From the NCBI GenBank assembly GCA_016196885.1, contig JACPWU010000063.1, positions 5,222-37,221 on the forward strand: DNA of 32,000 nucleotides. The letters are read 5' to 3'. Positions 1,938 through 24,108 of this stretch are shown here, in pieces. The position numbers and the translations under genes are program-made. Each line of letters begins with the position of its first letter. The stretch's first letter is position 1. Source of the DNA: Chlamydiota bacterium (GTDB taxonomy: Bacteria; Auribacterota; JACPWU01). The notes below the pieces were generated by a model, which worked only from the letters and a program-made list of their open reading frames with translations, was not told where the DNA came from and ran no database searches.

Positions 1938-1978
1938 TTTTAGATTTTGGATTTTAGATTTTAGAATATGGATTTTGA
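1938..1978 (+). repeat. Tandem heptamer words (T/G)(A/G)GATTT(T); stop ladder
   Basis: TAG at 1941, 1955 and 1962 and TGA at 1976, with TGG at the intervening period-7 positions 1948 and 1969. Confidence 0.8.
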
Positions 1979-2136
1979 AACATTTACCGGGACATCGGTG
2001 GTTGTTAAAACGTTTTTATTCTCATCTCACAAGTCGGTTCATTTAAGTTTTATTTTTAACATTCCGACAGCACTAAGGATAAGGAAACTCAAGACTATAA
2101 CAAGCAAGATTATCCATGTAAGAGAGATAGGCTTCC

Positions 2137-2481
2137 TTAGTGTGAAGATGAGAGATTGATCTCCTTCTTCTTTTCAAATCTTTCGCAGGTGTCTGTTGCT
2201 GTAACCTCCTTGTTCCAAAGGATGCACTTTTGGGTCCAAGGGTTAACAACATAATTCTTACAGTATTGACAAATTTTTCTTTCCTCATTCGGATTAAAAA
2301 TGTCCTGGCCTTTCCGTTGGCTATAAGGAATCTCTCCTTCTTGAAATTCAAGTTTACAAAAAGAGCAAATCTTTTTCTCTCCGATCAGGTTGAAGAAATC
2401 ATCAAATAATTTTTCAACTTTAAGAGGGGTCTCTTGCTGGCATTTTGGACAGTAGATAAGAACCGGTTTTTTTTCTTGCAT
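2137..2481 (-). CDS. Small Cys-rich zinc-ribbon protein (hypothetical)
   Basis: The 114-aa version starts at ATG (complement of 2479-2481), giving MQEKKPVLIYCPKCQQ. It has CxxC pairs (CPKC, CSFC, CQYC) plus further Cys. The track ORF extends to 2598, but that extension overlaps the nuoA start region. Confidence 0.55.
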   Translation of the reverse strand: MQEKKPVLIYCPKCQQETPLKVEKLFDDFFNLIGEKKICSFCKLEFQEGEIPYSQRKGQDIFNPNEERKICQYCKNYVVNPWTQKCILWNKEVTATDTCERFEKKKEINLSSSH

Positions 2482-2597
2482 GGGGTGTAGAATAGCATGA
2501 TTTTGACGGTCAAACCAGGGACTATGATTACTTGACAGTGCGTATGCACGATCGTAGAATGGCGGTTCTAAAAAGGCGACACGAAGGATCCCATTCA

Positions 2598-2951
2598 ATG
2601 ATGGAATACGCGAGTTTATTGATTGTTTTTGCCTTTGCGGCTTTTGTTGCGGGCCTGCTTATTTTTCTGACCAGTATTCTGGGTCCGAGGCGGAAGTCCG
2701 AAGTAAAGGAACAGCCTTTTGAATGCGGTTTTGATCCTATTACTTTACCTCGAGGCCGCTTCGGAGTGAAATTTTATTTGGTCGCGATGTTGTTTATTAT
2801 TTTTGATGTAGAATTGGTTTTCTTGTTTCCTTGGGCGGTTGTGTTTAAGAAGTTGGGAGCGATGGGTCTCTTGGAAATGATCGCTTTTTTGGGTATTGTC
2901 GTCGTGGGTTTGGTTTATGCCTGGAAAAAAGGGGCATTGGAGTGGGAGTAA
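2598..2951 (+). CDS. nuoA: NADH-quinone oxidoreductase subunit A
   Basis: 117 aa from ATG 2598 (the track uses an upstream TTG at 2532). It has three hydrophobic helices and the FECGF and DVELVFLFPW motifs typical of NuoA/ND3. It is the first gene of a nuo cluster. Confidence 0.9.
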   Translation: MMEYASLLIVFAFAAFVAGLLIFLTSILGPRRKSEVKEQPFECGFDPITLPRGRFGVKFYLVAMLFIIFDVELVFLFPWAVVFKKLGAMGLLEMIAFLGIVVVGLVYAWKKGALEWE

Positions 2952-2955
2952 AAAT

Positions 2956-3426
2956 ATGAAAATGTTGGAATCAGCAACAGGTTTTTTTACTTCTCGTCTT
3001 CAAGACGCCATCGGATGGGCGAGGAAATATTCTATTTTCCAATATCCTTTTGTAACCGCCTGTTGTGGGATGGAATACATGGCGACGGCTGCTTCTCATT
3101 ATGACATGGATCGTTTTGGGGCAGGTCTGGTGCGATTTTCGCCTCGGCAATCCGATGTGCTTTTTGTGGTGGGGACCATCAGTCAGAAAATGGCGCCGAT
3201 CTTAAAGAAAATTTATGATCAGATATGTGAGCCCAAATGGGTGGTGGCCTTTGGCGTATGCACCTGTACGGGCGGGTTCTATGATAATTACGCAACGGTG
3301 ATGGGGATTGACACGATTATTCCGGTGGATGTTTATATTCCGGGATGTCCTCCCAGACCTGAGAATGTGCTGGATGGACTGATGAAACTTCAAGAGAAGA
3401 TTCAGAGGCAGAAACAAGAAGTATAA
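2956..3426 (+). CDS. nuoB: NADH-quinone oxidoreductase subunit B
   Basis: Starts at ATG 2956 (MKMLESATG), 5 nt after the nuoA stop. It carries the cluster N2 ligand motifs CCGMEY, VCTCTGG and PGCPP. Confidence 0.93.
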   Translation: MKMLESATGFFTSRLQDAIGWARKYSIFQYPFVTACCGMEYMATAASHYDMDRFGAGLVRFSPRQSDVLFVVGTISQKMAPILKKIYDQICEPKWVVAFGVCTCTGGFYDNYATVMGIDTIIPVDVYIPGCPPRPENVLDGLMKLQEKIQRQKQEV

Positions 3427-3511
3427 AAACAGTTTTGAGTTTTAAGTTCTTAGTTTTAAGTTTTTGTAATTCAAAACTAAAAATTCAAAGTTTAAAACTG
3501 TTTTTGAAAAT
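3427..3511. repeat. AT-rich imperfect inverted repeat of AGTTTTAAG-like words between nuoB and nuoC
   Basis: AAAAACAGTTTT (3426-3437) is exactly complementary to AAAACTGTTTTT (3493-3504). The arms are built of repeated (G/A)AGTTTTAAG-type words. Stops occur at 3424, 3436, 3443, 3451, 3457, 3467 and 3478. Confidence 0.7.
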
Positions 3512-3994
3512 ATGGACATCTTAAATCAATTAAAATCCAAATTCTCAGAATATGTGATCGAGACCCACTCCCAATGTGGTGATGCGACCCTTGTGATCAA
3601 AAAAGAGGGTGTGATACCCCTTTTTTCTTATCTCAAAACATCGCCTGAATTAGATTTTAATTTTCTAATGGATTTAACGGCGGTGGATTACTTGGGGCGA
3701 GAGGGTTCACGCTTTGAGGTGGTGTATCATCTTTATTCTTTGTCAAAGAATCATTGCTTGAGAGTGAAGGTGGACGTGGGTGAAGAAGATTCTTCTCTTG
3801 ATTCTGTGAGTTCTTTATGGCCTGCTGCGAATTGGTATGAGCGAGAGGTGTGGGACATGTTTGGGATTAAGTTCAAGGGGCATCCCGATCTGAAAAGGAT
3901 TTTGATGTACGAAGAATTTCAAGGGCACCCTCTTCGTAAAGATTATCCGGTCAATCGGCGCCAACCCCTTGTAAAACCTGTTCCGATGAACTGA
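3512..3994 (+). CDS. nuoC: NADH-quinone oxidoreductase subunit C
   Basis: 160 aa, with the 30-kDa subunit signature WPAANWYEREVWDMFGIKFKGHPDLKRIL. Confidence 0.92.
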   Translation: MDILNQLKSKFSEYVIETHSQCGDATLVIKKEGVIPLFSYLKTSPELDFNFLMDLTAVDYLGREGSRFEVVYHLYSLSKNHCLRVKVDVGEEDSSLDSVSSLWPAANWYEREVWDMFGIKFKGHPDLKRILMYEEFQGHPLRKDYPVNRRQPLVKPVPMN

Positions 3995-4007
3995 CTTGTA
4001 ATTCTCT

Positions 4008-5354: not shown

Positions 5355-5386
5355 GTTCAAAGGTTTAAAAGTTCAAAGGTTCAAAG
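5355..5386 (+). repeat. Four tandem 8-nt words GTTCAAAG/GTTTAAAA directly upstream of nuoE
   Basis: Words start at 5355, 5363, 5371 and 5379. Three contain an AAGG Shine-Dalgarno-like core, the last of which lies 4 nt before ATG 5391. Confidence 0.8.
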
Positions 5387-5390
5387 GACT

Positions 5391-5880: not shown

Positions 5881-6010
5881 GCAGGCGGGTCCTGCCCCTC
5901 CTCACCCCCACCGATGGCATCGGTGTCGGGTAAGTCGGGAATGGAATGTAATATGCTGGACTCCACCTGCTGGCAGTCGGTGGGGGACCCCCAGTCGGGT
6001 CACCCGCTTT
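5881..6010. repeat. GC-rich long imperfect inverted repeat with a central 17-bp palindrome, between nuoE and nuoF
   Basis: CCCCCACCGA (5905-5914) is complementary to TCGGTGGGGG (5977-5986). The palindrome CACCGATG-G-CATCGGTG lies at 5909-5925. GTCGG-containing words recur. GC content is visibly far above the surrounding operon. Confidence 0.7.
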
Positions 6011-6030: not shown

Positions 6031-7323
6031 ATGAAATCCTATCCCAAAATTCTTTCAAAAAATTTTGAGGTTCCTCATGCCCAACACATAGGGGTCTATC
6101 TCTCTGGCGGTGGTTACGAGGCGGCTCGGAAGGTCTATACTTCTTGGAAGCCAGAGCAGTTGATTGAGGAAGTCAAAAAATCTAATTTGCGAGGATTGGG
6201 CGGGGCTGGTTTTTCGACGGGGATGAAATGGGCTTTTATACCGAAAGATTCAACGCGGCCGCATTATGTGGTGGTGAATGCGGATGAGGGAGAGCCGGGG
6301 ACTTTTAAAGACCGCTATATTTTGTGCAAGGATCCGCACGCCCTTGTCGAAGGAATTCTCATCGCCTGCTTTGCCGTTGGGTCCCATAAAGCTTTCGTTT
6401 ACATTCGAGGGGAATATGTGGAGCCCATTCGTATTTTTAGAGAGGCCGTGCGAGAAGCCCATGAAAAGGGTTTTTTGGGAAAAAATGTTTTTGGCACAGG
6501 TTACGAGGTTGAAATTGTGATTCATCAGGGGGCGGGTGCTTATATTTGTGGAGAGGAGACGGCGCTTCTAGAATCTCTTGAGGGAAAAAAAGGATTTCCT
6601 CGTCTGAAGCCTCCCTTTCCAGCAGTTAAAGGTGTTTTCGGATGCCCCACCGTTATCAATAATGTAGAGACTTTGGCCTGTTTGCCTCCTATTGTAAATC
6701 TCGGGGCCGAGTGGTTTGCCAAATTAGGGTGCGAGAAAAATGGGGGGACGCGGCTTTACAGTGTCAGTGGCCATGTGAATCGTCCGGGCCTTTATGAATT
6801 GCCTTTGGGAACACCTTTGCGGGAAATCATTGAGGAACATGCAGGGGGTGTTTGGAAGGGACGTCAGCTCAAGGCAGTGATTCCGGGTGGAATTTCTGCT
6901 TCTATTTTGAGGTCGGATGAAGTTGACATCAAAATGGATTTTAATTCACTGGCCCGAGTTGGTTCCATGCTGGGTTCGGCGGGTGTGGTGGTGATGGACG
7001 AGACCACATGCATGGTCACAACCCTTTTGGTGGCGGCTCGTTTTTTTGCCCATGAATCTTGCGGCCAGTGCAGTCCCTGTCGAGAGGGGACAGGCTGGGT
7101 TCTGAAAATGATCGAGAGAATTTATGAGGGCCACGGGAGGTCTCAAGACTTGGATAATTTATTAGACATTGGAAAAAACATGATGGGTAACACCATCTGT
7201 GCCTTTGGGGATGCGGCGCCGACTCCGGTGATCAGTTATATCACGAAGTTTAGAGCAGAATTTGAGTATCATGTGCGGCATGGGAAGTGTGATTTAGAGG
7301 ACAGAAGTCAGAAGTCAGAATAA
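6031..7323 (+). CDS. nuoF: NADH-quinone oxidoreductase subunit F
   Basis: Starts at ATG 6031, preceded by AGGAG at 6021-6025 (the track starts at GTG 6028). It has the GGAGFSTGMKW FMN/NADH motif and the ESCGQCSPCREG 4Fe-4S motif. The last 8 codons (EDRSQKSE) are encoded by a repeat arm. Confidence 0.94.
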   Translation: MKSYPKILSKNFEVPHAQHIGVYLSGGGYEAARKVYTSWKPEQLIEEVKKSNLRGLGGAGFSTGMKWAFIPKDSTRPHYVVVNADEGEPGTFKDRYILCKDPHALVEGILIACFAVGSHKAFVYIRGEYVEPIRIFREAVREAHEKGFLGKNVFGTGYEVEIVIHQGAGAYICGEETALLESLEGKKGFPRLKPPFPAVKGVFGCPTVINNVETLACLPPIVNLGAEWFAKLGCEKNGGTRLYSVSGHVNRPGLYELPLGTPLREIIEEHAGGVWKGRQLKAVIPGGISASILRSDEVDIKMDFNSLARVGSMLGSAGVVVMDETTCMVTTLLVAARFFAHESCGQCSPCREGTGWVLKMIERIYEGHGRSQDLDNLLDIGKNMMGNTICAFGDAAPTPVISYITKFRAEFEYHVRHGKCDLEDRSQKSE

Positions 7324-7373
7324 AAAAATAAATAACATCCCTATTATTCTGAATTCTGTCTTCTGTATTCTGA
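7297..7373. repeat. Heptamer-word inverted repeat (CAGAAGT words) at the nuoF/nuoG junction
   Basis: The left arm GAGGACAGAAGTCAGAAGTCAGAAT (7297-7321) pairs with the right arm ATTCTGAATTCTGTCTTCTGTATTCTGA (7346-7373) at 21 of 25 positions. The loop is A-rich. The left arm contains the nuoF stop. Confidence 0.85.
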
Positions 7374-7392
7374 GTAACGAAAGTGATTTTGT

Positions 7393-8871: not shown

Positions 8872-8920
8872 TCGCCCGATTTATCGGGCAAATCCATTGC
8901 CCCATAAATGGGGCGACTAC
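8868..8920. repeat. Solo copy of the GTAGTCGCCC...GGGCGACTAC palindromic core (same core as the MITE)
   Basis: Outer 10-bp stem GTAGTCGCCC/GGGCGACTAC encloses two inner hairpins, GCCCGA-TTTA-TCGGGC and GCCCCAT-AA-ATGGGGC. The nuoG stop TAG (8869-8871) lies in the outer stem. Confidence 0.9.
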
Positions 8921-8930
8921 AAATAAAAAC

Positions 8931-10007: not shown

Positions 10008-10516
10008 ATAGAAGTGAGTTAACTTTTATTGAACGCCTTTATATCTTCGAAGCCCTGAAGGGCATTCTCCTCACCTCTCGTCATTTTTTTTGGAATCTTT
10101 TTTTGCATACCACTCATCTTTTTGGCTTGTTAAAAAATAAAAGTGCAGCTGTGACTGTGCAATACCCTGATGAAATAAGGCCTTACGCGCCTCGTTTGAG
10201 AACACGTCATCACCTGGTTCCTCGAGCCGATGGAAGTCCTCGATGTGTAGCCTGCATGCTTTGTGAAACAGTATGCCCTGCCAAATGTATTTACATCATT
10301 GCAGGAGAGCATCCTGATCCCAACGTTGAAAAAGTGGCAAAGCGCTTTGATCTTGATTTAGGTAAATGTGTTTATTGCGGTTTTTGCGTGGAGGTGTGTC
10401 CTGAGGATGCGATTCGCATGGACACCCAAATCATGAATATAGCGGCGTACAGTCGGGAAGAAATGCTTTTGGATATCAATGAACTTTTAAGACCGGGGAG
10501 CAGAAAGCAGTCGTGA
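10004..10516 (+). CDS. nuoI: NADH-quinone oxidoreductase subunit I
   Basis: Starts at ATG 10004 in an ATGA overlap with the nuoH stop (the track starts at 9938 inside nuoH). It has two CxxCxxCxxxCP motifs (CVACMLCETVCP, CVYCGFCVEVCP). Confidence 0.92.
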   Translation: MNRSELTFIERLYIFEALKGILLTSRHFFWNLFLHTTHLFGLLKNKSAAVTVQYPDEIRPYAPRLRTRHHLVPRADGSPRCVACMLCETVCPAKCIYIIAGEHPDPNVEKVAKRFDLDLGKCVYCGFCVEVCPEDAIRMDTQIMNIAAYSREEMLLDINELLRPGSRKQS

Positions 10517-10589
10517 GTCGTGAGGGGTGAGTCGTTAGTAAAAAATAATGCCTTTAGAACTCACGACCCACGACAGACGACTCACGACT
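10509..10589. repeat. Heptamer-word inverted repeat (GTCGTGA/GGGGTGA words) between convergent nuoI and the MurC-like gene
   Basis: The left arm AGTCGTGAGTCGTGAGGGGTGAGTCGT carries TGA at 10514 (nuoI stop), 10521 and 10528. The right arm ACTCACGACCCACGACAGACGACTCACGACT ends in the stop of the minus-strand gene. Confidence 0.88.
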
Positions 10590-11943
10590 ATCTACATTTT
10601 TGAATTTTCCTAACTATCTGATGCGCCAGTTCTGTCAACGTATGATCTCTCGCTCCCATCACCACGATGTTGTCTCCCTTTTTAGCTTTTTTTCGCAGTA
10701 TTTGAAGAAGTGTTTCACGATCTTGGCAAAAAAAAGTGGGGATTTTTTTCTTTTTTAGAACTTCCACAAAACTTTCTGAACTGATGCTTCTATCTGCTGT
10801 TCCACCCGCATCATAAATGGGTAGGAGATAGAGTTGGTCTTGAGGGCGAATCATCTTTGAAAGAATCTCAATCAGTTCTTGCCATTGATGCTTTAAAGGG
10901 CCAAACCCATGTGGTTGATAGACAGCAATCACCCGATCACTTTTGTCTTGAAGGGCGTTTAACGTCGCTTCAATCTTGGCGGGGTTATGAGCAAAATCAT
11001 CATACACTCGAATGTTGTTTGTCTTTCCAATCAATTCCAGTCTTCTTTCGACGCCTTGAAAGTTTTCAAGGCCCCTTTGAATGTGATGGATGGGAATCCC
11101 TATGATTTGGGCCGTGGCGATGGAGGCCAGGGCATTCATGATGTTGTGAACGCCCGGTATTTTTAAATGGTAAGGGGCTTCATCCACTTCAAAACGAGAT
11201 CCTTCCTTCAATAAGCGAATGTGATCGGCCTTTGATTTTCCGAAATAAAAAGATTTTTCTTTGGGAAGAGATAAATTTTTTGTTTCAGGACAGTCTGAAT
11301 TAATGACAATGGCTTTTCCCGTATGGAGGACGAGATGTTGAAAAAGATCATGGAGCTCTTTTAAGTCTTTATGGTCTTTGGAAATATTTGTGATCACAGA
11401 AATTTTAGGGCGATAATGAACGAGACTCCCGTCGCTTTCGTCTGCTTCTGCCAGAAGCCAAGGCCCTTTTCCAAAATGCCAATTGGAACTTTTTCCCTCC
11501 TCTGGAAAGTTTTTCACCTGGCCTCCGCATAGAAAGGAAAAATCCCAGCCTGCGGCTTTTAAAATGTGAGCCATCATGCCTGTCACGGTTGTTTTCCCGC
11601 TGGTTCCAGAAACAGCGATTCCCTCTTTTTGGTTAAAAATTTGGGCCAGCATTTCGGCTCGGGTGACCCGAGTGAACTTTTGCTTCTGGGCATGGACAAA
11701 ATCAGGGTTGTCTGATTCAACGGCGCTTGAATAAATAACAGCCGTTAAATCTGAAGGCAAATGGGCTCCATCTTGGGGAACCACAACGATTCCAGAGTTT
11801 TTGAATTGTTCTTGAAGCGATTCAGATTTCTTCTGATCAAAGGATCGGTCTGAGCCCATGACTTTATGCCCTTGGGCTCTTAGGAAATGAGCCAAAGAAC
11901 TCATTCCTGTCCCTGCCATTCCAACGAAAAAATATTGAGACAT
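10588..11943 (-). CDS. murC: Mur ligase family protein, MurC-like (UDP-N-acetylmuramate--L-alanine ligase)
   Basis: Starts at ATG (complement of 11941-11943), giving MSQYFFVGMAGTGMSSLAHFLRAQGHKVMGSD. It has the P-loop GTSGKTTVTGM and EADESDGS...NISKDH, which resembles MurC rather than Mpl. It is not located in a dcw cluster. Confidence 0.7.
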   Translation of the reverse strand: MSQYFFVGMAGTGMSSLAHFLRAQGHKVMGSDRSFDQKKSESLQEQFKNSGIVVVPQDGAHLPSDLTAVIYSSAVESDNPDFVHAQKQKFTRVTRAEMLAQIFNQKEGIAVSGTSGKTTVTGMMAHILKAAGWDFSFLCGGQVKNFPEEGKSSNWHFGKGPWLLAEADESDGSLVHYRPKISVITNISKDHKDLKELHDLFQHLVLHTGKAIVINSDCPETKNLSLPKEKSFYFGKSKADHIRLLKEGSRFEVDEAPYHLKIPGVHNIMNALASIATAQIIGIPIHHIQRGLENFQGVERRLELIGKTNNIRVYDDFAHNPAKIEATLNALQDKSDRVIAVYQPHGFGPLKHQWQELIEILSKMIRPQDQLYLLPIYDAGGTADRSISSESFVEVLKKKKIPTFFCQDRETLLQILRKKAKKGDNIVVMGARDHTLTELAHQIVRKIQKCR

Positions 11944-12544: not shown

Positions 12545-12661
12545 TCTTTTTTGATGTTGCCCTCGCTTTTTAGTATGAAATAGTTTCTAACTTAAATCAA
12601 GCGAATTTGGCTTGAGGCAAAAACGAATGCGTTTGTATGGGTAAACATATGAAAAAAATAT

Positions 12662-13142: not shown

Positions 13143-13150
13143 GTTCCAGG

Positions 13151-13191
13151 GTCGTGAGGGGTGAGACATGACTCACTCCTCACTCTCACGG
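13151..13191. repeat. Short heptamer-word hairpin of the GTGAGGGGTGAG family
   Basis: GTCGTGAGGGGTGAG ... CTCACTCCTCACTCTCACG. TGA occurs at 13155, 13162 and 13169, covering all three frames. Confidence 0.8.
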
Positions 13192-13207
13192 TTGTAGTAC
13201 TTGTAGT

Positions 13208-14507: not shown

Positions 14508-14769
14508 ATTCCCCCTCCTTAATCAATGGTTAGACAAACTTATCAAAAACACCACTTTATATTAAGCAAAAATTGTACCAAGAGACGCTTCTGGGATGAT
14601 AAAACAATTTTTTATAAGAATTTTCTTTGAATCCTTGTTAAAAATTGCTCATCTTGAGAAAATTCGGCCTTGAAATTTGCTTATCGAAACCCTTTCAATG
14701 TGAAAAGGCGTGTCAAAAACACGTGACAATATAAAAAATCTTATGGTATGAATACAAGGAAATAATTTA

Positions 14770-14843
14770 TAGCCTTCAGCTTTCAGCATTCAGCTAACAG
14801 GGAAAGCAGAGTTTTTGCTGAATGCTGTTTGCTGAACGCTTTA
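14770..14843. repeat. Heptamer-word inverted repeat (CAGCNTT words) in the divergent porin/pepA promoter region
   Basis: The left arm TAGCCTTCAGCTTTCAGCATTCAGC has (T/C)AG at 14770, 14777, 14784, 14791 and 14798. The right arm GCTGAATGCTGTTTGCTGAACGCT has CTG at 14818, 14825 and 14832. It ends 16 nt before the pepA ATG. Confidence 0.85.
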
Positions 14844-14858
14844 TGAAAAGGAAAAACT

Positions 14859-16331
14859 ATGCAAATCGAATGTGTCAGTACAAAAGAGAGTGCAATCAAA
14901 GAATGTGATGCGATTATTCTGGGGGTGACGGAGGGTAAAAAAGATTTAGGTTTTCTTCGCGATTTCTTAAGTGAAAATCTTGTTAAAAGGATTGAAAAAT
15001 ATTTTACCCGAGCAGGAGCCCCCATTCGTAAAAACGACATTCTTTCTTTTGATGGGGATGGACAAATTATTTACACAGTGGTTCTTTCCAAAGAGCCCTC
15101 CATGGAAAATATTCGCCAGGCTTGTGGGCACACGGTCGACTTTGTTTGTGGCCAAGTCCATCGAAATGTTGCTGTGTTGGCTGATTCTTTTGGAACGAAG
15201 GAAGGAAATCTGACGGATCGTGTGGAGGCAATGGCAGAGGTTATTGACCTGGCCCTTTATCGTTTTGATCCCTTTAAGCCAAAGGATCAAAAGAGGAAAG
15301 ATTTAAAAACATGTCAGTTTATCTTTCGCGATGGCAAGGACGTTACGAAAGCGCTCAAGGCCGTTGAAATAGGCAGAACAGTCTCTGAAAGTGTCAATTT
15401 TACCCGTGACCTGGTCAACACCCCTTCCAATGAACTTCCGCCCCGTGTTTTAGCGGACCGGGCTTCTCAAATGGCGAAGGAGTGCAATATTTCAATCAAG
15501 ATTTACGATGAAAAAGAACTTCAGAAAATGAAAATGGGGGGGATTCTCGCCGTTTCTCAGGGAAGTGTTCAGGAGCCTCGAATGATTGTTCTGGAGTATG
15601 GAGATCCAAAGAAGCCGGTAGACTTTGCCTTTGTAGGCAAGGGCGTTACGTTTGACAGTGGCGGGATTTCGATTAAGCCCAGTGATGGAATGGAAAAGAT
15701 GAAATATGATATGGCGGGAGGCGCTGCTGTGCTAGGTATTTTGAGAACGGCAGCTAAACTAAGTTTAGATGTTCATATAGTAGGAATTGTTCCTGCGGCT
15801 GAAAATATGCCCAGTGGGGCGGCTTATCGGCCTGGAGATGTGATTTGGATGGGTTCAGGAAAGAGTGTAGAGGTTTTAAATACGGATGCCGAGGGACGTT
15901 TGCTTTTGGGAGACGGGCTTTTTCTTGCCGAGCGGTATAAGCCTAAAATGGTGGTGGATTTGGCCACATTGACTGGGGCCTGCGTGGTGGCCTTGGGAAC
16001 AGTGGTTGTAGCGGTTTTGGGCAATGATCCAAAAGTGATTTTGAAAATTAAGGAGGCCGGTGAGCTTTCGGGAGAACGCGTTTGGGAACTTCCTCTTTGG
16101 GATGATTATTTTGATCAGATTAAAAGTGATGTGGCTGAGATTAAAAATGTGGGAGGTAAAGGAGGTGGGACGATTACAGCAGCCATGTTTCTCAAGCAGT
16201 TTGTGAATTATCCTTGGGCGCATTTGGATATTGCAGGGACGGCCTGGGCGGAAGAAAAGAAGCCTTATTTCCAAAAAGGGGCAACGGGTGTGGGGGTTAG
16301 GTTGCTGACGAAAATGATGAGAAAACAATGA
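14859..16331 (+). CDS. pepA: Leucyl aminopeptidase (M17)
   Basis: 490 aa with the M17 signature NTDAEGRLLLGD, VGKGVTFDSGGISIKP and the metal-ligand context. Confidence 0.93.
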   Translation: MQIECVSTKESAIKECDAIILGVTEGKKDLGFLRDFLSENLVKRIEKYFTRAGAPIRKNDILSFDGDGQIIYTVVLSKEPSMENIRQACGHTVDFVCGQVHRNVAVLADSFGTKEGNLTDRVEAMAEVIDLALYRFDPFKPKDQKRKDLKTCQFIFRDGKDVTKALKAVEIGRTVSESVNFTRDLVNTPSNELPPRVLADRASQMAKECNISIKIYDEKELQKMKMGGILAVSQGSVQEPRMIVLEYGDPKKPVDFAFVGKGVTFDSGGISIKPSDGMEKMKYDMAGGAAVLGILRTAAKLSLDVHIVGIVPAAENMPSGAAYRPGDVIWMGSGKSVEVLNTDAEGRLLLGDGLFLAERYKPKMVVDLATLTGACVVALGTVVVAVLGNDPKVILKIKEAGELSGERVWELPLWDDYFDQIKSDVAEIKNVGGKGGGTITAAMFLKQFVNYPWAHLDIAGTAWAEEKKPYFQKGATGVGVRLLTKMMRKQ

Positions 16332-16427
16332 AGAATGAAGAATGAAGAATGAAAAGTGAAGAGTAGAAAATGAAAAACAAGGGAAGGTTGCGTTCTTCAT
16401 TTTTCACTTTTCATTCTTCATTGTTTT
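16322..16427. repeat. Heptamer-word inverted repeat (GAAGAAT words) spanning both stops of convergent genes; perfect period-7 stop ladders on both strands
   Basis: On the + strand, stops fall at 16329, 16336, 16343, 16350, 16357, 16364 (TAG) and 16371. TCA (TGA on the minus strand) falls at 16397, 16404, 16411 and 16418. AAAACAATGAAGAATGAA (16322-16339) is exactly complementary to TTCATTCTTCATTGTTTT (16410-16427). Confidence 0.92.
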
Positions 16428-17961
16428 TTTCTAGCCAGTTCTTCACATCAAAGCTTGCAGATATGTTGAGCTTGCCCTGGTCCATTCTTCCATAAGCGAG
16501 GATGTTTATCTCGTTGTCGGGATGGACGTAGAGGAGAAAATTCAGGCTTTTTGGAAAAGAGGCGGTCCTTTTTGAAAATTCAGAATCGGAGGAGACCTTG
16601 CTTTCCTTCGTTTTTTCTATGGCCTTTAGGAAATCTTCTTCTGAATTAAATTGAAGTCCTATCCAGTGCTGTTCCTCTTGATTCTGAGATTCTTTTAAAA
16701 AAGTGCTGTACAAGGATTTTTCCTTCCATTGAATTTGATCACACGAGCTGCCTTCCCTTTTTGAGATTTGCGCCTGATCGGCCTCTTGGAAAAAGCGGTT
16801 GAAATCTAGTCTTGTCTTTGTCCCGTCTTCCCTTTTTAGAGTGGCGACCACGAGGGCCTTTGCCTTTTTCTCTCCAGGGAAAAAATAGAGACTGACAAGA
16901 TTTTGAATGTGGGCCAGATAATTTCGGAAGAGGGCAGGGGGACCAGCATTTTCTTCCATGGAAAGAACCTTTTCAATTTCGACGGGTGTATTGAATGAAA
17001 TTTTCATCAGACCCAATACATTTTCAGGAGGGTTCGTTTCTAGAAGATTTTGAGTGGGAACAGAATTTTTAAATTGAGATTCTAATTTAGATCTTGTCAC
17101 GGGTTCGATTTGTGTATTCAGGTCCAATTTATTATTTTCAAAATGAAATCTTGTGACGATATGGCGGATTTGGGGGAGATTGTTTTCTAGGGATTCAAGG
17201 GCCAGACTCAGCAGTTTCGATTTGTCAGAGGAGAGAATGGGGTTCAGTTTCACTTTCAGGCTTTCGAGATCTTCATGATAGGCTTCGTAGGCCTGCTGGG
17301 TGTTGAGAACCATTTCGCAGTCCATTTTTTCTGAAGACGCTTGGCCTGTCTGGGATGAAAGGAAGATCTCAGGTTGAAATCCTTTCAAGATGTTCCGATC
17401 TCCTGAAACGATGACGAGACTCCCTCGAAAGGCCACATAATATTGAAAAAGCACTTTCTTTTGGAATTGCATCACATCTGTCTTGGGGTCTTTTTCAAGA
17501 GCTTTTAAATAGGCTTCTCTGTCAAATTGGGTCCTTTCTTCGGTGAATTCCTCAATCGGTTGATCTCGGGTCGCTTCCTTACGTGTAAAGCCACTCCCTC
17601 CAAAAAGTCCTTTTCCAAATCCCATGAGAAAAAGGGCCTTGTCCTTCAAGTGGGCAGAGTAGAGAAAGGGGTTGGGATGGGTTTTAGGGTCTAAGCGGAT
17701 GTAGAGAATGTCTTGGGATAAATCAAAACTTTCCATTTTTGTGTTTTTGAAAAAGATGGAGAAAATGAGTCCCGTGAGGGTTTGGCTCGATCGGCCGATC
17801 GGTGATAAAAGGGCGTCTATGTGAGTCAGGGTGTCCGATAGATTTTGGAACGAGATGTAACCCAGGCACGTTTCAGGAAGGCCCGAGGCGTTCTCGCTTG
17901 AAGAGATCGGCGTCCAGGAGCAAAAGAGAAAGTAGAAGATTGGAAGAACGAATTTTTTCAT
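16411..17961 (-). CDS. Secreted hypothetical protein (516 aa)
   Basis: Long ORF with the signal peptide MKKFVLPIFYFLFCSWTPISSSE. I recognise no family motif. Confidence 0.7.
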   Translation of the reverse strand: MKKFVLPIFYFLFCSWTPISSSENASGLPETCLGYISFQNLSDTLTHIDALLSPIGRSSQTLTGLIFSIFFKNTKMESFDLSQDILYIRLDPKTHPNPFLYSAHLKDKALFLMGFGKGLFGGSGFTRKEATRDQPIEEFTEERTQFDREAYLKALEKDPKTDVMQFQKKVLFQYYVAFRGSLVIVSGDRNILKGFQPEIFLSSQTGQASSEKMDCEMVLNTQQAYEAYHEDLESLKVKLNPILSSDKSKLLSLALESLENNLPQIRHIVTRFHFENNKLDLNTQIEPVTRSKLESQFKNSVPTQNLLETNPPENVLGLMKISFNTPVEIEKVLSMEENAGPPALFRNYLAHIQNLVSLYFFPGEKKAKALVVATLKREDGTKTRLDFNRFFQEADQAQISKREGSSCDQIQWKEKSLYSTFLKESQNQEEQHWIGLQFNSEEDFLKAIEKTKESKVSSDSEFSKRTASFPKSLNFLLYVHPDNEINILAYGRMDQGKLNISASFDVKNWLEKNNEE

Positions 17962-18018: not shown

Positions 18019-19230
18019 ATGATAACGCCCTTTGTGTTCAGTTTTAGTCTTTTCGCATTGTTCATTGCCCTCCTGTATGTCTTTCTCGTCAAGCGCAGTC
18101 AAGTGACGCTGAAGTTGAAGCAGCTTGAGCTCCAGAGTTTCTACGAAAAAGAAAAGGAGATGTTGGATCGGATTATCAATGCAGCAAGCGATACCCTTCT
18201 GTGTCTGGACCACGATAAGAAAGTCCTTTTCATGAACAAGAAGGGTGAGGAGATGACGGGATGGAAGGTGGAAGAGGTGATTGGGAAGGCCTTCTGTCGA
18301 GAAGTCATTCGGGTGAGGGATTCGAAGGGTCATCTGATTTGTCATTCCGATTGTCCCTTGGAGAAGGCCTGTACTTTGGCCTCGAGAGAGGCTGTGTGCG
18401 AAGGAATGCTTCTGACAAAGAATGGGGCTCAGGCGTGGGCAGAACTTCGCTACAGTGCCCTGGTGGATTCAAAGGGGCATTTGAGCTTTGGCATTTTGAC
18501 GCTGAGGGATATTTCTCAGTTCAAGAAGGCTGAGCACATGCGTTTGCAATTGACTTCAAATATTGTTCATGAATTAAGAACGCCCCTTACGTATATTCGG
18601 GGATATGTAGATTTACTTTTGATGAGAAAAGTCGGGGGTCTTTCTGAGGATCAGGAGAAATCCCTTCGGGTGATTCGAGAAAGTGTTTTTAAATTGATTG
18701 CGTTGATTGATAATCTCTTGGAGGTGGCCCGCATTGAAGAAGGTAAGTTTTATTTACGATTTGGTTCTGTCCGTTTAAACCATTTGATTCAGAAGGTGGT
18801 GGATCTTGCAAAGGTCGAGGCCGATCGGAAAAATATTGTTTTGATTTGGGAAGCCCAAGATTCATTTCCTGAAATTTATGCTGATGGAAAGAGATTGGAA
18901 GAAGTTTTGATGAATTTATTGAGCAATGGGTTAAAATATACCCACCCGGGAGGGAGGATTGAAATAGCATTGGGTGAAGAAGACGAGACGGTCTCAATTT
19001 TAGTGGCAGATACGGGGATTGGGATTGCTGCGGAATATGTGAAGGGTATTTTCGAGCGATTTGCCAGGCTCGATGATGTGGATGGCAACAAGCCGGGAGA
19101 AGGTGCGGGTCTGGGCTTGAACATTGTAAAGAGAGTGGTCGAGGCACATGGAGGAAAAGTGTGGGTTGAAAGCGAAATGGGGAAGGGGTCAACTTTTTAT
19201 GTTCAGATTCCGAAAAGAAATGTAGCATAA
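18019..19230 (+). CDS. Membrane-anchored PAS sensor histidine kinase
   Basis: Starts at ATG 18019 (the track starts at TTG 17983). It has one TM helix, a PAS-like region (LFMNKKGEEMTGWKVEEVIGKAF), the H-box HELRTPLT, and an HATPase with N, G1 (DTGIGI) and G2 (GAGLGL) boxes. Confidence 0.9.
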   Translation: MITPFVFSFSLFALFIALLYVFLVKRSQVTLKLKQLELQSFYEKEKEMLDRIINAASDTLLCLDHDKKVLFMNKKGEEMTGWKVEEVIGKAFCREVIRVRDSKGHLICHSDCPLEKACTLASREAVCEGMLLTKNGAQAWAELRYSALVDSKGHLSFGILTLRDISQFKKAEHMRLQLTSNIVHELRTPLTYIRGYVDLLLMRKVGGLSEDQEKSLRVIRESVFKLIALIDNLLEVARIEEGKFYLRFGSVRLNHLIQKVVDLAKVEADRKNIVLIWEAQDSFPEIYADGKRLEEVLMNLLSNGLKYTHPGGRIEIALGEEDETVSILVADTGIGIAAEYVKGIFERFARLDDVDGNKPGEGAGLGLNIVKRVVEAHGGKVWVESEMGKGSTFYVQIPKRNVA

Positions 19231-19234
19231 CAAT

Positions 19235-19292
19235 GGTGAGAGGTGAGGGGTGAGTTTTAAAAGCATTTGTTTTTACTCACCTCTCACCCCTC
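19235..19292. repeat. Heptamer-word hairpin (GGTGAGA/GGTGAGG words)
   Basis: GGTGAGAGGTGAGGGGTGAGT ... ACTCACCTCTCACCCCTC. Stops occur at 19237, 19244, 19251 and 19258 with an exact 7-nt period. Confidence 0.88.
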
Positions 19293-19321
19293 GCGCTTGA
19301 ATTTAAAAATGGAGGAATGTA

Positions 19322-20443: not shown

Positions 20444-20449
20444 AGGCAG

Positions 20450-20527
20450 TTGTGAGGGGTGAGTCGTGAGTGGTGAGTAAAAAAAAACTCCGTTAAAACT
20501 AACCCCTCACGACTCACCCCTCACGAC
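20450..20527. repeat. Heptamer-word inverted repeat (GTGAGGG/GTGAGTC words) between the binding-protein gene and livH
   Basis: The left arm carries TGA at 20453, 20460, 20467 and 20474. The right arm CCCCTCACGACTCACCCCTCACGAC is complementary at about 23 of 25 positions. The loop is A-rich. Confidence 0.9.
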
Positions 20528-20533
20528 AAATAC

Positions 20534-21433
20534 ATGCAATTCCTACAACAACTCATCAACGGCATCAGCTGGGGAAGCATTTATGCCCTGATCGCCTTGG
20601 GATACACCATGGTGTATGGGGTTTTGCGCCTGATTAATTTTGCCCATGGCGATATTTACATGCTGGGGGCTATGTTTGGCTATTATGTGGCGGTCTTTCT
20701 CGGTGTGGCCGAACATGCCTCTGGTGTGAGAGTGCTGTCTGTTGTTCTGATCAGCATGCTTGGATGTGGATTGATCGGGGTCGGCATTGAACGATTTTGC
20801 TATCGTCCTTTGAGAAAAGCCCCCCGCCTCGCGGCCTTGATGACGGCTGTTGGAGTCTCTCTTCTTTTGGAAAATGGGGGACAGTTGATTTTTGGGGCCG
20901 ATCCTAAATTTTTTCCTCCCCTCATTCACACCCGAGAAATTTTTAGGTTTCACGAAATTGTTCTTAATAACATTCAACTGATGATCTTTGCGGTTTCTCT
21001 CCTTTTGATGTTCCTTCTTCACTGGATTGTGATGAAAACTCGCATGGGAAAGGCCATGCGGGCCGTGTCTTTTAGCCATGATGCGGCGGGTTTGGTAGGG
21101 ATTCCTGTGAATCGGGTGATCAGTTTTACTTTTTTTCTAGGCTCTCTCTTGGCTGCGGCCGCTGGTATTTTGGTGAGTCTTTCCAATCCCAAAGTGGAGC
21201 CTCTCATGGGGATTATGCCGGGGCTGAAGGCTTTTGTGGCCGCGGTATTGGGCGGGATTGGAAACATGATGGGTGCGATGATCGGGGGTTTGATCATGGG
21301 GATTTCTGAAGTGCTCGTCTCCGGCTACATTTCAAGCACGTATCGAGACGCCTTCGCCTTTTTTATTTTAATTTTTATTTTGCTTTATAAACCGTCTGGA
21401 CTTTTGGGGAAGACGGGACCGGAGAAATTATAG
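20534..21433 (+). CDS. livH: Branched-chain amino-acid ABC transporter permease
   Basis: 299 aa and polytopic. It has a LivH-like N-terminus MQFLQQLINGISWGSIYALIALGYTMVYG. Confidence 0.9.
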   Translation: MQFLQQLINGISWGSIYALIALGYTMVYGVLRLINFAHGDIYMLGAMFGYYVAVFLGVAEHASGVRVLSVVLISMLGCGLIGVGIERFCYRPLRKAPRLAALMTAVGVSLLLENGGQLIFGADPKFFPPLIHTREIFRFHEIVLNNIQLMIFAVSLLLMFLLHWIVMKTRMGKAMRAVSFSHDAAGLVGIPVNRVISFTFFLGSLLAAAAGILVSLSNPKVEPLMGIMPGLKAFVAAVLGGIGNMMGAMIGGLIMGISEVLVSGYISSTYRDAFAFFILIFILLYKPSGLLGKTGPEKL

Positions 21434-21509
21434 CGTTCAGCGTTTAGCGTGCAGCGTACAGAAAAACCAGCATCACTCCTGTCCGCTATACGCTGTCCGC
21501 TGTCCGCTA
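21431..21509. repeat. Heptamer-word inverted repeat ((T/C)AGCGTN words) between livH and livM
   Basis: TAGCGTTCAGCGTTTAGCGTGCAGCGTACAG (21431-21461) against CTGTCCGCTATACGCTGTCCGCTGTCCGCTA (21479-21509) gives 23 of 31 complementary positions, in 4-5-bp blocks at a 7-nt period. Confidence 0.85.
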
Positions 21510-21513
21510 AATT

Positions 21514-22455
21514 ATGAAATCGATTCGACAAGTTCTTTTCTGTGTTGCTATTTTATGCTTTTTTTTCTTTCTCAATCACTTCCTCACCCTTTACCTCAAT
21601 CCCTATTACCTTCAAATCCTTATTTATGCCGGGATCAATGTGATTCTGGCGATCAGTCTTAATTTGGTGAATGCCCAGACGGGCCAATTTTCAATGGGGC
21701 ATGCTGGATTCATGGCGGTGGGGGCCTATGCGAGTGCTTTTTTTACTGATCGGGTGGGACCTCTCCTTCATTCTTTTTTCACGCACGTGCTCGCGTTCCC
21801 GGATTTTTTCTCTTCCTTTTTCATTTTTGGTTTTGCCTTGGTGATTGCGGGGTGCCTCTCGGCGGGTGCGGGCTTTATCGTAGGGTTACCCGTTTTGAGA
21901 TTGCGCGGAGATTATTTGGCCATCGCGACGCTTGGGTTTGGCGAAATCATTCGGGTGATGATTTTAAACATGGATGTCGTGGGTGGGGCACGCGGCTTTA
22001 CCGACATTCCTATCTATACGAATGTCTTCTGGTTGGGACTCTGTGTTTATGGGACTTGGATGGTGATTGGAAACCTCATTCATTCAACGAAGGGCCGAGC
22101 CTTTTTAGCCATTCGGGAGGACGAGGTGGCGGCGGAATGCATGGGGATTCACACGACGAAATATAAAGTAGGGGCCTTTGTGATCGGCGCTTTTTTTGCA
22201 GGAGTGGGGGGAGCCCTCTTGGCGCATGAAGTCGGGTATTTGCACACGAATTCTTTTACATTTTTAAGGTCCATTGAAATTGTGGTGATGGTAGTGTTGG
22301 GTGGGACGAGTCTCGTGGGTTCAGCCCTTGCAGCCATTGTTTTGACTCTTTTACCGGAGGTGTTAAGGTTTTTCAGTGAATATCGGATGGTCGTTTATTC
22401 ATTGGTTTTAATTTTTTTGATGTTGGCCAGGGCTAAAAAATGGAAAAGTACTTAA
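21514..22455 (+). CDS. livM: Branched-chain amino-acid ABC transporter permease
   Basis: 313 aa and polytopic, LivM-like (LRLRGDYLAIATLGFGEIIR). The last codons (WKST*) lie in a repeat arm. Confidence 0.9.
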   Translation: MKSIRQVLFCVAILCFFFFLNHFLTLYLNPYYLQILIYAGINVILAISLNLVNAQTGQFSMGHAGFMAVGAYASAFFTDRVGPLLHSFFTHVLAFPDFFSSFFIFGFALVIAGCLSAGAGFIVGLPVLRLRGDYLAIATLGFGEIIRVMILNMDVVGGARGFTDIPIYTNVFWLGLCVYGTWMVIGNLIHSTKGRAFLAIREDEVAAECMGIHTTKYKVGAFVIGAFFAGVGGALLAHEVGYLHTNSFTFLRSIEIVVMVVLGGTSLVGSALAAIVLTLLPEVLRFFSEYRMVVYSLVLIFLMLARAKKWKST

Positions 22456-22499
22456 GTAAAAAAATCCTTCCTTGCTAACTTAAGCACTTAGACACTTAG
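22442..22499. repeat. CTTAAG-word hairpin element, copy L (inverted relative to copy R at 24029-24108)
   Basis: 22451-22499 aligns to the reverse complement of 24031-24088 with about 45 identical positions in about 50 columns. The match includes the loop core TCCTTCCTT and the arm CACTTAGACACTTA. Confidence 0.85.
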
Positions 22500-22513
22500 T
22501 TAGTAATACGCAT

Positions 22514-23287
22514 ATGAACCTCTTAGAACTCAAAAATTGTACTTTATCTTTTGGCGGCTTAACGGCCGTCTCCCATTTAAATTTGAATGTGAATGAGGGA
22601 GAGTTGGTCGGACTTATTGGTCCTAATGGGGCTGGGAAAACAACGGTTTTTAATTTAATGACGGGAATTTACGCGCCGAGCGGAGGTGATATTTTTTTCA
22701 AAGATTCCTCATTGTCCTCCTTAAGGCCTTCTCAAGTTTGCAGGCTCGGAGTGGCCAGAACATTTCAGAATATTCGTCTTTTTGGAAACATGTCAGTTTT
22801 GGACAATGTTCGGGTGGCGCAGTACATTTATTTGAATCGGGGCCTTTGGCGGACGGTCTTAAGAACACGGTCGTTTTATGAAGAAGAGGAGCAGGTTTTC
22901 AAGAAGGCCAGGGAAATATTGAATTGGGTGGGGCTTTCTCAAGATGAGGCGGATGAGGCGCATAATTTACCCTATGGAAAACAAAGGCGTTTGGAAATGG
23001 CCCGTGCCCTGGCCACTCGGCCACATCTTTTACTTCTGGATGAGCCGGCGGCCGGGATGAACCCTTTCGAAAAAGAAGAATTGATGAAATTGATCGAGCG
23101 TATTCATCGGGAATTAAAGGTGAGTATTCTTCTGATCGAGCATGATATGAAGGTTGTGATGGGGATTTGCCATCGTGTGATGGTGATGGATCATGGCGAA
23201 ATGATTGCGGAAGGAACCCCCAATGAAGTTCAGAAAAATGCGAAAGTAATAGAGGCGTATTTAGGACAACAAATTAACAATTGCTAA
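22514..23287 (+). CDS. livG: Branched-chain amino-acid ABC transporter ATP-binding protein
   Basis: 257 aa with Walker A GPNGAGKTT, the LivG-type insertion, Walker B LLLLDEP, and the C-terminal EAYLG motif. Confidence 0.92.
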   Translation: MNLLELKNCTLSFGGLTAVSHLNLNVNEGELVGLIGPNGAGKTTVFNLMTGIYAPSGGDIFFKDSSLSSLRPSQVCRLGVARTFQNIRLFGNMSVLDNVRVAQYIYLNRGLWRTVLRTRSFYEEEEQVFKKAREILNWVGLSQDEADEAHNLPYGKQRRLEMARALATRPHLLLLDEPAAGMNPFEKEELMKLIERIHRELKVSILLIEHDMKVVMGICHRVMVMDHGEMIAEGTPNEVQKNAKVIEAYLGQQINNC

Positions 23288-23305
23288 TTATCAATTATTT
23301 TTCTT

Positions 23306-24022
23306 ATGCTAAAAATCAACAACTTAATCGTCTCATACGGCAACATCAAGGCCCTTCAAGGAGTTTCCCTTGAAGTAAAAGAAGGGGAAATTGTGACTTT
23401 GATCGGAGCCAATGGGGCAGGGAAGACCACTCTTTTAAAGACGATTTCGGGATTGATTGCGCCCGTTTCGGGAACGATTTATTATTCTAAAAATGAAAAA
23501 AATAGTTCTTTAAATCATATGGCTCCCCATGAAATTGTGAGGCTGGGTGTATCTCAAGTCCCGGAAGGGAGAATGGTTTTTGCGAATTTGTCCGTGGCTG
23601 AAAATTTAGATTTAGGGGCTTTTTTGAGAAGGGATGCGCGTGAAGTTAGAGAAAGTCTTGATAAAGCCTTTCAACTTTTTCCAAGATTGAAAGAGCGAGT
23701 GACCCAAAATGCAGGTACTTTAAGCGGAGGAGAGCAGCAAATGCTTGCCATTGCCCGTGCTTTAATGGCAAAGCCCAAACTCCTTTTAATGGATGAACCT
23801 TCATTGGGTCTTGCACCCATTTTGGTAAAAGAAATTTTTGAAACCATTCGAAAAATCAATCAAGAAGGTCTAAGCATTTTACTCGTAGAGCAAAATGCGC
23901 ATCTTGCATTGCAATTGGCCCATCGGGCGTATGTATTAGAGACAGGTAAAATTGTTCTTGAAGGTCCTGCACGTGAGTTGGCTATGAATGAAGAGGTGAA
24001 GAAGGCGTATTTGGGGGCGTGA
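23306..24022 (+). CDS. livF: Branched-chain amino-acid ABC transporter ATP-binding protein
   Basis: 238 aa with Walker A GANGAGKTT, signature LSGGEQQ, Walker B LLLMDEP and KAYLG at the C-terminus. Confidence 0.92.
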   Translation: MLKINNLIVSYGNIKALQGVSLEVKEGEIVTLIGANGAGKTTLLKTISGLIAPVSGTIYYSKNEKNSSLNHMAPHEIVRLGVSQVPEGRMVFANLSVAENLDLGAFLRRDAREVRESLDKAFQLFPRLKERVTQNAGTLSGGEQQMLAIARALMAKPKLLLMDEPSLGLAPILVKEIFETIRKINQEGLSILLVEQNAHLALQLAHRAYVLETGKIVLEGPARELAMNEEVKKAYLGA

Positions 24023-24028
24023 TTAAAT

Positions 24029-24108
24029 GTCTAAGTGCTTAAGTGTCTAAGTGATTAAGTTATAAGGAAGGATTTGTTTTTACTTAAGCACTTGGTTACG
24101 CACTTATT
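24029..24108. repeat. CTTAAG-word hairpin element, copy R; period-8 TAA ladder
   Basis: TAA occurs at 24024, 24032, 24040, 24048 and 24056. AAGTGCTTAAG (24033-24043) is exactly complementary to CTTAAGCACTT (24083-24093). It lies between convergent livF and the hybrid kinase gene. Confidence 0.88.

Follow-up and report, generated by a model that had tools for sequence, protein, structure and literature searches.

Why should the gene junctions of a bacterial genome be filled with short words repeated every 7 nt? The question is raised by a stretch of 32,000 nt (the window; positions 5,222 to 37,221 of contig JACPWU010000063.1, assembly GCA_016196885.1), for which an earlier note, made from the letters alone, described arrays of 7-nt and sometimes 8-nt words at nearly every junction, usually as inverted repeats and often with a stop triplet in the word. 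Three-frame stop pads, hairpins within operons, slippage products and a mobile repeat family were all named as possible explanations. Here, we report that whole units recur at separate junctions, loops included, and we consider it probable that they form dispersed families of small palindromic elements with 7-nt (in one family 8-nt) tandem arms, which are copied between spacers, adjusted in length by slippage and, as RNA, similar to repetitive extragenic palindromic (REP) sequences. The elements behave like non-autonomous repeats of the REP, REPIN (hairpin-forming doublets of REP sequences) or MITE (miniature inverted-repeat transposable element) type, and they are of the same kind as the cyanobacterial short tandemly repeated repetitive (STRR) sequences and long simple sequence repeats (SSRs) and the Xanthomonas array pairs. 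The conspicuous ladders of stop codons are an arithmetic by-product of the period, and not a selected feature or a translational device.

Results

Tandem Repeats Finder (TRF) gives approximately 25 period-7 rows in the window and, at period 8, two arrays (5355-5387 and 24019-24060). When a strict rule allows no more than 2 mismatches per 14 lag-7 self-comparisons and low-complexity runs are removed, the window contains 14 period-7 arrays, compared with an average of 0.18 (maximum 2) over 50 shuffles that preserve dinucleotides; this rule finds zero arrays in the window at periods 9-12. Tandem heptamers, with at least three head-to-tail 7-nt copies, are hence present far above chance. The claim that such words stand at nearly every junction is borne out: among the 19 junctions of at least 36 nt, 13 carry a 7- or 8-nt array (including the copy between livM and livG, which was spotted by eye and confirmed by alignment) and a further 3 carry a different, REP-like repeat. 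Inverted arms were confirmed for 11 units, whose predicted RNA folds range from -24 to -51 kcal/mol (z of -3 to -11 against shuffles), with stems of 21-40 bp interrupted by periodic mismatches and loops of mostly 12-27 nt. Over the families the loops range from 5 to 27 nt, and copies of one family keep the same loop. A unit spans about 50-110 nt, with 2 to 7 copies of the word in an arm. Where the flanking genes are co-directional, the left arm in most cases begins between -12 and +10 nt from the stop codon, and the right arm ends 4-23 nt from the next start. The inverted-repeat arrangement described in the note holds for the 11 hairpins. Two elements of the window, 28472-28566 and 29074-29100, both beyond the range that the note covered, lie in coding sequence and not at junctions. 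The elements are as follows, with the confirmed extent of the inverted arms given last where it applies (ORF, open reading frame; HK, histidine kinase; RR, response regulator):

1937..1976: direct array ATTTTAG/ATTTTGG, 5.7 copies, in the 801-nt spacer between tRNA-Leu and nuoA (TRF, strict rule); no clear opposite arm; weak fold, -10.8 kcal/mol
3425..3505, + strand: hairpin between nuoB and nuoC, word AGTTTTA/AGTTCTT; left arm begins at the nuoB stop; fold -24.2 kcal/mol, z = -4.2; arms 3425-3505
5355..5387, + strand: direct 8-nt array between nuoD and nuoE, GTTCAAAG x4; no inverted arm; overlaps the Shine-Dalgarno-like AAGGA before nuoE
7289..7378, + strand: hairpin between nuoF and nuoG, word CAGAAGT / ATTCTGA; fold -32.4 kcal/mol, z = -7.0; arms 7289-7378
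10505..10595: family A, between convergent nuoI and murC, words AGTCGTG/AGGGGTG; first word gives the nuoI stop; -36.8 kcal/mol; arms 10509-10589
13148..13196: short family A copy, two words per arm and a 5-nt loop; -23.6 kcal/mol; arms 13155-13190
14765..14846: family B, word AGCNTTC, between divergent BBP2 and pepA, 16 nt upstream of the pepA start; -31.9/-33.5 kcal/mol; arms 14768-14843
16318..16430: hairpin between convergent pepA and 516-aa ORF, word AATGAAG / TTCTTCA, about 7 + 4 copies; -38.3 kcal/mol, z = -7.0; arms 16322-16427
19230..19300: family A in reverse orientation, between PAS-HK and livK; -39.4 kcal/mol, z = -8.1; reverse-strand alignment includes the loop; arms 19231-19299
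20445..20530: family A, between livK and livH; -50.8 kcal/mol, z = -11.3; fills the 90-nt junction from 7 nt past the stop to 8 nt short of the start; arms 20449-20527
21428..21512: family B, between livH and livM; -34.8 kcal/mol; about two systematic mismatches per word between the arms; arms 21429-21511
22445..22498: family C (8-nt word) in reverse orientation, between livM and livG; left arm supplies the last livM codons (WKST*)
24015..24108: family C, 8-nt word GTGATTAA/GTGTCTAA, between convergent livF and RR-HK; -26.6 kcal/mol; arms 24019-24105
27651..27678: three direct copies of TTTTACT, between divergent genes and upstream of a giant ORF (TRF, strict rule)
28472..28566, + strand: hairpin within the giant ORF, AGTCGAT / ATGGACT, with a G-G mismatch every 7 nt; -36.5 kcal/mol; encodes about 19 extra residues; arms 28476-28571
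29074..29100, + strand: perfect AAAATCA x3.9 array in the coding sequence of the same giant ORF; encodes NQKSKIKN; no sense-strand stop in the word

As had been noted, several arms supply the ends of real genes. In addition to the nuoI stop and the livM tail, the left arm between nuoF and nuoG constitutes the last 7 NuoF codons (DRSQKSE) and adjoins the stop, and the arms at 16318..16430 give the stops of both pepA and the 516-aa ORF, with T-runs on either side, on both strands. An Rfam search of the window has tRNA-Leu as its sole match, so that the elements are covered by no family, and a scan for consensus terminators does not list them. Identity with intrinsic terminators, which have a compact GC-rich stem of 5-12 bp, a 3-8 nt loop and then a U-tract, was rejected on the basis of the long stems with periodic mismatches, the mostly long loops and the T-runs, which follow only 3425-3505 and 16318-16430; a canonical terminator with GC stem and T-run lies separately at 13210-13245, after the short family A copy.

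The evidence for dispersal comes from the parts of the units that are not repetitive. Family A has 4 copies, of which 10505-10595 and 20445-20530 give a gapless alignment of 83 nt, approximately 77% identical, that takes in the non-repetitive A-rich loop and the left flank, while 19230-19300 is the reversed unit and 13148-13196 a short version. The 2 copies of family B (14765-14846 and 21428-21512) have the arms and the start of the loop in common, and the 2 copies of family C match at 87% over 53 nt, loop included, when 22445-22498 is compared with the reverse complement of 24015-24108. In a related genome, GCA_016196915.1 (LivH 77% and NuoF 75% identical; loci L084 and L168, L-numbers being the labels of fetched comparison loci, 160 of which were fetched as outgroups), one family occupies at least 10 junctions in 34 kb and is built of AAAATCA-type words, with inner TGACATAT and facing TGTCATTTTG. 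These alignments indicate that many short spacers of this genome have received copies of whole units, in both orientations, which favours the mobile or dispersed repeat family among the options of the earlier note. Operons and divergent junctions tolerate the units, and so, in one instance, does a gene; the units are present in some relatives and absent from others.

In the reading that we favour, units would be copied or transposed between spacers by some route, and the length of their arms would change in 7-nt steps by slipped-strand mispairing. Once transcribed, a unit would fold into a long imperfect stem-loop that, as in REP sequences, may shield the upstream mRNA or attenuate read-through. 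REP hairpins have possible effects on mRNA stability, as at malE-malF. Because the foot of the stem would hold the stop of one gene next to the start of the following gene, operons might tolerate the hairpin as a nearly neutral insertion, and at the positions taken by some copies, such as the one between livK and livH, a hairpin is probably of use. We infer these RNA-level effects of the elements from sequence and predicted structure.

Several observations weigh against dispersal of this kind or against its RNA side. No transposase, RAYT-type (REP-associated tyrosine transposase) or other, is present in the gene tables of approximately 130 kb of clade sequence. Families in the window have few copies (2-4), from which no fixed termini or target-site duplication can be defined, and no duplication was recognised by inspection in the flanks of three family A copies, which are too few to decide; the arms are themselves long inverted repeats. 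Array lengths do not vary between near-identical assemblies: a comparison of loci L168 and L169 over 19,118 nt shows 1 mismatch and no gap, and L002 differs from the window by 1 mismatch over 7,108 nt, with no array-length difference. Hence, ongoing slippage is not demonstrated, and the arrays are not hypervariable on that time scale. Contingency-locus SSRs, as in phase variation, were likewise rejected, given that many arrays show no indels in near-identical assemblies, with very few genomes compared. In some stems the same position is mismatched in every heptad (G-G at 28478, two per word between livH and livM), which means that arms can be homogenised separately; this points to slippage within arms, and a simple copy-a-palindrome model does not account for it. 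Stem mismatches over all loci across phyla comprise 38 G.U and 50 A.C, with no sense-strand bias, so that a strand-specific RNA constraint is not demonstrated. Elements at divergent junctions (between BBP2 and pepA, and upstream of the giant ORF) are a misfit with any role confined to gene ends.

Among related metagenome-assembled genomes (MAGs), element density ranges from none to approximately one per 3.4 kb. Arrays are absent from locus L170 (NuoF 74% identical), where the nuo junctions measure 10-49 nt; L004 and L085 have few arrays overall. In L167 (77%), 7- or 8-nt arrays of other words stand at nuoB-nuoC, nuoD-nuoE, nuoF-nuoG and the convergent nuoI-murC junction, and L168 has its own single family at the same four places. 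Given that the nuo elements of L168 all belong to one recent family, these positions were colonised and not inherited. The livH-livM junction measures 7 nt in L004 compared with 80 nt, filled by the element, in the window. Proteins are conserved to their stop codons (LivK ...FFKRVEP*, LivH ...GPEKL*, NuoB ...QKQEV*) and the elements begin at or just past the stop; in NuoF the array takes the place of a variable tail of 6-8 residues. On these alignments, the junction pattern fits repeated colonisation of short spacers. Between livK and livH, a heptamer hairpin is found in all four of the genomes compared (window, L004, L084 and L085), with words that are all different (GTGAGNN, TCGTAAN, AAAATNN and TGCGTGN), and in unrelated bacteria a conventional GC-rich stem-loop lies between the binding-protein gene and livH (about -35 kcal/mol in L106 and -49 kcal/mol in L092). 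A few positions seem to favour a hairpin, and the strong folds together with the livK-livH junction speak for the hairpins within operons that the note had proposed.

This brings up the possibility that the elements are primarily intercistronic RNA hairpins selected by the host, kept at particular junctions, which would set how strongly cistrons are expressed relative to one another by mRNA stabilisation, partial termination or RNase III processing, with the period as their mode of construction and dispersal secondary. Both sets of livK-livH hairpins, heptameric and conventional, agree with it, as do the four nuo junctions occupied in the window, L167 and L168, and at the co-directional junctions of the window the sense strand folds better in 4 of 5 cases, with stem mismatches that are G.U in 7 instances and A.C in 1. 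However, L170 does without any of these hairpins, the livH-livM hairpin is missing from the 7-nt junction of L004, copies occur at divergent junctions and in coding sequence, the sense-strand bias disappears across phyla, and the nuo elements of L168 were recently colonised. We therefore regard host selection as a possible primary explanation, but a doubtful one, and continue to prefer dispersed elements.

The same build, with unrelated words, is found in other phyla: in Blastocatellia (L076 and L077), in Nitrospirae (L054) and also in L051, L025, L157, L127, L125, L166 and L140. The arms there comprise 3-10 heptads around a loop of 10-100 nt and start within a few bases of the stop codon, and L157 contains 12 arrays in 21 kb. 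These hairpins flank pepA or livH, and the loci include MAGs and unassigned metagenome contigs. L157 and L076 have the word GGATTTT in common, which in the window appears as ATTTTGG at 1937. Taken over all loci, 123 elements use 91 distinct words. An 'AG' core, which looked promising as a shared motif in the window, was rejected: the one enrichment over the 123 elements is a mild excess of GA/TC (z = 3.8), TA is depleted, and no grammar emerges. The words are essentially arbitrary, and period and pairing are what is kept.

A more far-reaching proposal is that the elements form a widespread cross-phylum class (Auribacterota-related, Blastocatellia, Nitrospirae and others), built and spread by a dedicated mechanism working in 7-nt steps and co-opted as generic intercistronic stem-loops. 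We consider this unlikely; if it were true, ordinary slippage would not be the cause, and a transposase, a primase-polymerase or a repair enzyme with a 7-nt register would be the candidates.

Purely local replication slippage, by which arrays would grow in place with no copying between loci and no function, would accommodate the 91 words in 123 elements, the different words that orthologous junctions bear from genome to genome and the range of 2 to 7 copies per arm. Heptamers are also reported to be the commonest unit of long SSRs in many prokaryotes, for which polymerase slippage was proposed (Mrazek 2007, as quoted in PMC4679880 and PMC4692102). It does not account for non-repetitive loops and flanks that are common to copies at separate loci in both orientations, for a single family at 10 or more loci in L084/L168, or for the lack of length variation between near-identical assemblies, and as the whole explanation it strikes us as improbable. 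Slippage as one step in the history of dispersed elements is a different matter and forms part of the reading that we favour.

The remaining question is whether the stop codons are special. Every coordinate given for a stop in the earlier note is indeed a stop triplet, and the stops do rotate through the frames, with 5 of 7 series covering all three and each at least two; the generalisation to all three frames fails for the series from 1941, which covers two. The predicted excess of stops at a lag of 7 is also present in the intergenic DNA of the window (26 vs 14.9, z = 3.0; at lag 14, z = 2.0). Despite this, there is no support for phased stops as the feature that defines and explains the elements. 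Identical-triplet pairs at lag 7 number 17 vs 4.9 expected for stops and 218 vs 65 for all 64 triplets, both an approximately 3.4-fold excess. Against a null in which the letters of each consensus word are permuted, a stop on either strand occurs in 16 words vs 13.5 expected for 19 elements of this clade and in 30 vs 30.0 expected for 60 elements from other phyla. The dinucleotide TA, which is needed for TAA and TAG, is the most depleted of all in the words (z = -5.5), and many arrays elsewhere, such as those of GGATTTT and GGGTGTT, have no stop on either strand. The ladders are a matter of arithmetic: word lengths of 7 and 8 are not divisible by 3, and any stop contained in such a word enters all frames once there are at least 3 copies.

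The copy inside the giant gene leads to the same conclusion. From 27729 on, frame 0 meets no stop before the window ends (32000), a run of at least 1423 codons, and coding is supported by codon usage over 27750-29400 and again beyond approximately 30450. The N-terminal 560 residues have 7489 homologues, many of them giant proteins. Residues SKGINLFFPWTMVYGLWTQ, encoded by the loop and right arm of 28472-28566, are an insertion that is missing in 11 of 11 aligned homologues, and several HMMER matches break exactly at this point. The unit contains five stop triplets, all in frames 1 and 2, and the position of the ladder that falls in frame 0 (28491) reads CAG, not TAG. Units can hence land in coding DNA, where stops are a liability and not a function. 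That the arrays are three-frame translational stop pads, selected to halt ribosomes in any frame past a gene, is accordingly very improbable: it could draw on the frame-crossing series, on the arms that give the upstream gene its real stop and on a sense-strand stop in 9 of 14 left arms (window, counted by inspection), but it meets stop words at chance given their composition, an equal lag-7 excess for all triplets, TA depletion, many stop-free words elsewhere and copies at a divergent junction and, with the in-frame stop removed, in coding sequence.

The elements are a property of the genome and not of its assembly: two Logan contigs that carry pepA match the window at 99.99-100% identity over 7.1 and 2.6 kb, and an artefact is ruled out by this agreement of independently assembled contigs. 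Among species representatives the nearest is a Candidatus Auribacterota MAG (PVC, the Planctomycetes-Verrucomicrobia-Chlamydiae group), with PepA 67% identical, and pepA is also encoded on contig JACOUD010000078.1 of GCA_016178005.1, a groundwater MAG that bears the NCBI label 'Chlamydiae bacterium'. On sequence similarity, the host is a PVC-group, Auribacterota-related MAG. Scanning metagenomes with LivH yielded no close relative (best 67% identity) and provided outgroups. The window encodes a nuoA-B-C-D-E-F-G-H-I operon, a Mur ligase (murC), a BFN-domain protein, a BBP2 porin and pepA, followed by the 516-aa ORF (no Pfam match), a PAS histidine kinase, livK-H-M-G-F and two-component proteins.

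Discussion

Hairpins with heptameric arms are known from Xanthomonas, in which approximately 190 GGGAATC arrays include 70-75 convergent pairs able to form stem-loops (Rehm et al. 2015, PMC4692102). About 90% are intergenic, at a mean of 28 nt from the upstream ORF and mostly between co-oriented genes, and from species to species they keep their positions but vary in length and sequence (PMC4692102). The window shares with them closely spaced pairs of arrays, built of one word but placed on opposite strands, that can fold into a stem-loop not far from where the upstream ORF ends. Xanthomonas relies on essentially one G-rich word, studied for G-quadruplex formation, whereas the window has at least 8 unrelated, mostly non-G-rich words in addition to the 8-nt family, and it differs further in that copies have loops in common, one lies in a gene and the phylum is another. 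GGGAATC itself has only single occurrences in the window, with no tandem.

For the cyanobacteria, three tandem heptamers (STRR) were described in Calothrix (Mazel 1990, as quoted in PMC4692102), heptamer repeats near gene starts were suggested to affect expression in Nostoc (bioRxiv 10.1101/2022.06.06.494920), and paired inverted heptamer arms were reported as few in Anabaena (PMC4692102). The common ground with STRR and long SSRs comprises 7-nt tandems, several words per genome, an intergenic position near gene starts or ends and slippage as a proposed origin. In contrast to STRR, inverted pairs of arms are the rule in the window, and the host belongs to the PVC group. A cyanobacterial STRR identity was rejected: nuoE, nuoF and nuoG are present, the nearest relative is from Auribacterota, and the STRR1-3 words (CCCCAGT, TTGGTCA and CAACAGT) have no tandem copy in the window, and hence the elements are not STRR in the narrow sense.

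Heptamers with stops have been described as TAACTGA repeats in Beggiatoaceae, some cyanobacteria and Bacteroidetes, where forward copies give three-frame stops and so must lie at ORF ends (MacGregor 2015, PMC4679880). As in the window, the word contains a stop and some copies overlap the end of the upstream ORF; reverse TAACTGA copies are tolerated inside ORFs. TAACTGA is one fixed word that is nearly always in direct orientation (with one inverted case) and just upstream of starts, whereas the window has many words, usually as inverted pairs just past stops, and no TAACTGA repeats.

In REPINs, RAYT transposases spread repeat doublets that form a hairpin (Bertels and Rainey 2011, PMC3116915). 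REP, BIME (bacterial interspersed mosaic element) and REPIN families resemble the elements as short extragenic palindromes with two inverted halves that form a hairpin, at gene 3' ends and in operons, with a selfish origin. REP halves are small palindromes with a conserved GTAG/CTAC end and a link to RAYT, whereas the arms in the window are tandem arrays without either feature. Rickettsia palindromic elements are 100-150 nt long, palindromic, frequent in genes and placed in frame in protein genes, to which they add a peptide, and they have no heptamer substructure. The unit at 28472-28566 also inserts in frame, but only this one hairpin and one array lie in a gene in the window.

It follows that heptamer period, inverted arms and three-frame stops are, in combination, already described, and the earlier note was mistaken in knowing of no such class: inverted GGGAATC pairs provide the first two features (PMC4692102), and the frame-rotating stops had been noted for TAACTGA (PMC4679880). 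The new features are the lineage of the host, how many unrelated word families a single genome contains, the shared loops, the 8-nt family and the copy inside a gene. Known carriers of heptamer-repeat hairpins now also include an uncultured PVC-group lineage and, from the side survey, several soil and groundwater phyla. That period and hairpin are kept while the word is free sharpens a question that dates from the STRR era, namely why 7, and what spreads the repeats. On the practical side, the repeats in such genomes define many gene ends, add tails to proteins such as NuoF, LivM and PepA, and can lie in genes, which will mislead gene callers and terminator predictors.

Additional observations

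The tRNA-Leu gene (anticodon GAG) lies at 1645-1730, in the long spacer between a glycosyltransferase gene and nuoA, and the array at 1937-1976 is approximately 200 nt downstream of it.

The giant ORF has no Pfam match, and two HExxH motifs occur late in its sequence. In its middle (29400-30000) codon usage favours a 183-aa ORF on the minus strand, 29522-30073, and the ORF could represent either a single giant gene whose centre is odd or two genes that an antisense frame, itself open, connects.

Three of the genes behind hairpins, livH, livM and nuoC, start 6-8 nt past the right arm (20527-20536, 21508-21516 and 3505-3514) and lack any recognisable Shine-Dalgarno sequence, in contrast to pepA (AAAGGA) and livK (GGAGG). 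Initiation at livH, livM and nuoC may depend on coupling across the hairpin.

A second, REPIN-like family occurs at 8867-8921, 12687-12754 and 25796-25863. It consists of inverted small palindromes with GTAG...CTAC ends (GTAGTCGCCCGATTyATyGGGCA ... TGCCCCATAAATGGGGCGACTAC), and two of the copies are nested in an element of approximately 150 nt (12652-12804 and 25768-25903) bounded by inverted TAGGCATATGCACTTGA. This build suggests a RAYT-type transposase somewhere in the genome. The copy at 8867-8921 adjoins the end of NuoG, which has 492 aa in the window (7393-8871) compared with 525-542 aa in relatives (L167 11357-12934, L168 9786-11414), and the repeat may have truncated or replaced the NuoG C-terminus.

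The pentamer AGTCG is common to different repeats: the REP-like GTAGTCGCC (8867-8875), the family A word AGTCGTG (10509-10530), the AGTCGAT of the in-gene hairpin (28478-28508) and three AGTCGGG in the GC-rich spacer between nuoE and nuoF (5920-6010). Locus L004 also has AGTCGAT AGTCAAC upstream of livK. The recurrence could be due to chance or to a shared recognition site.

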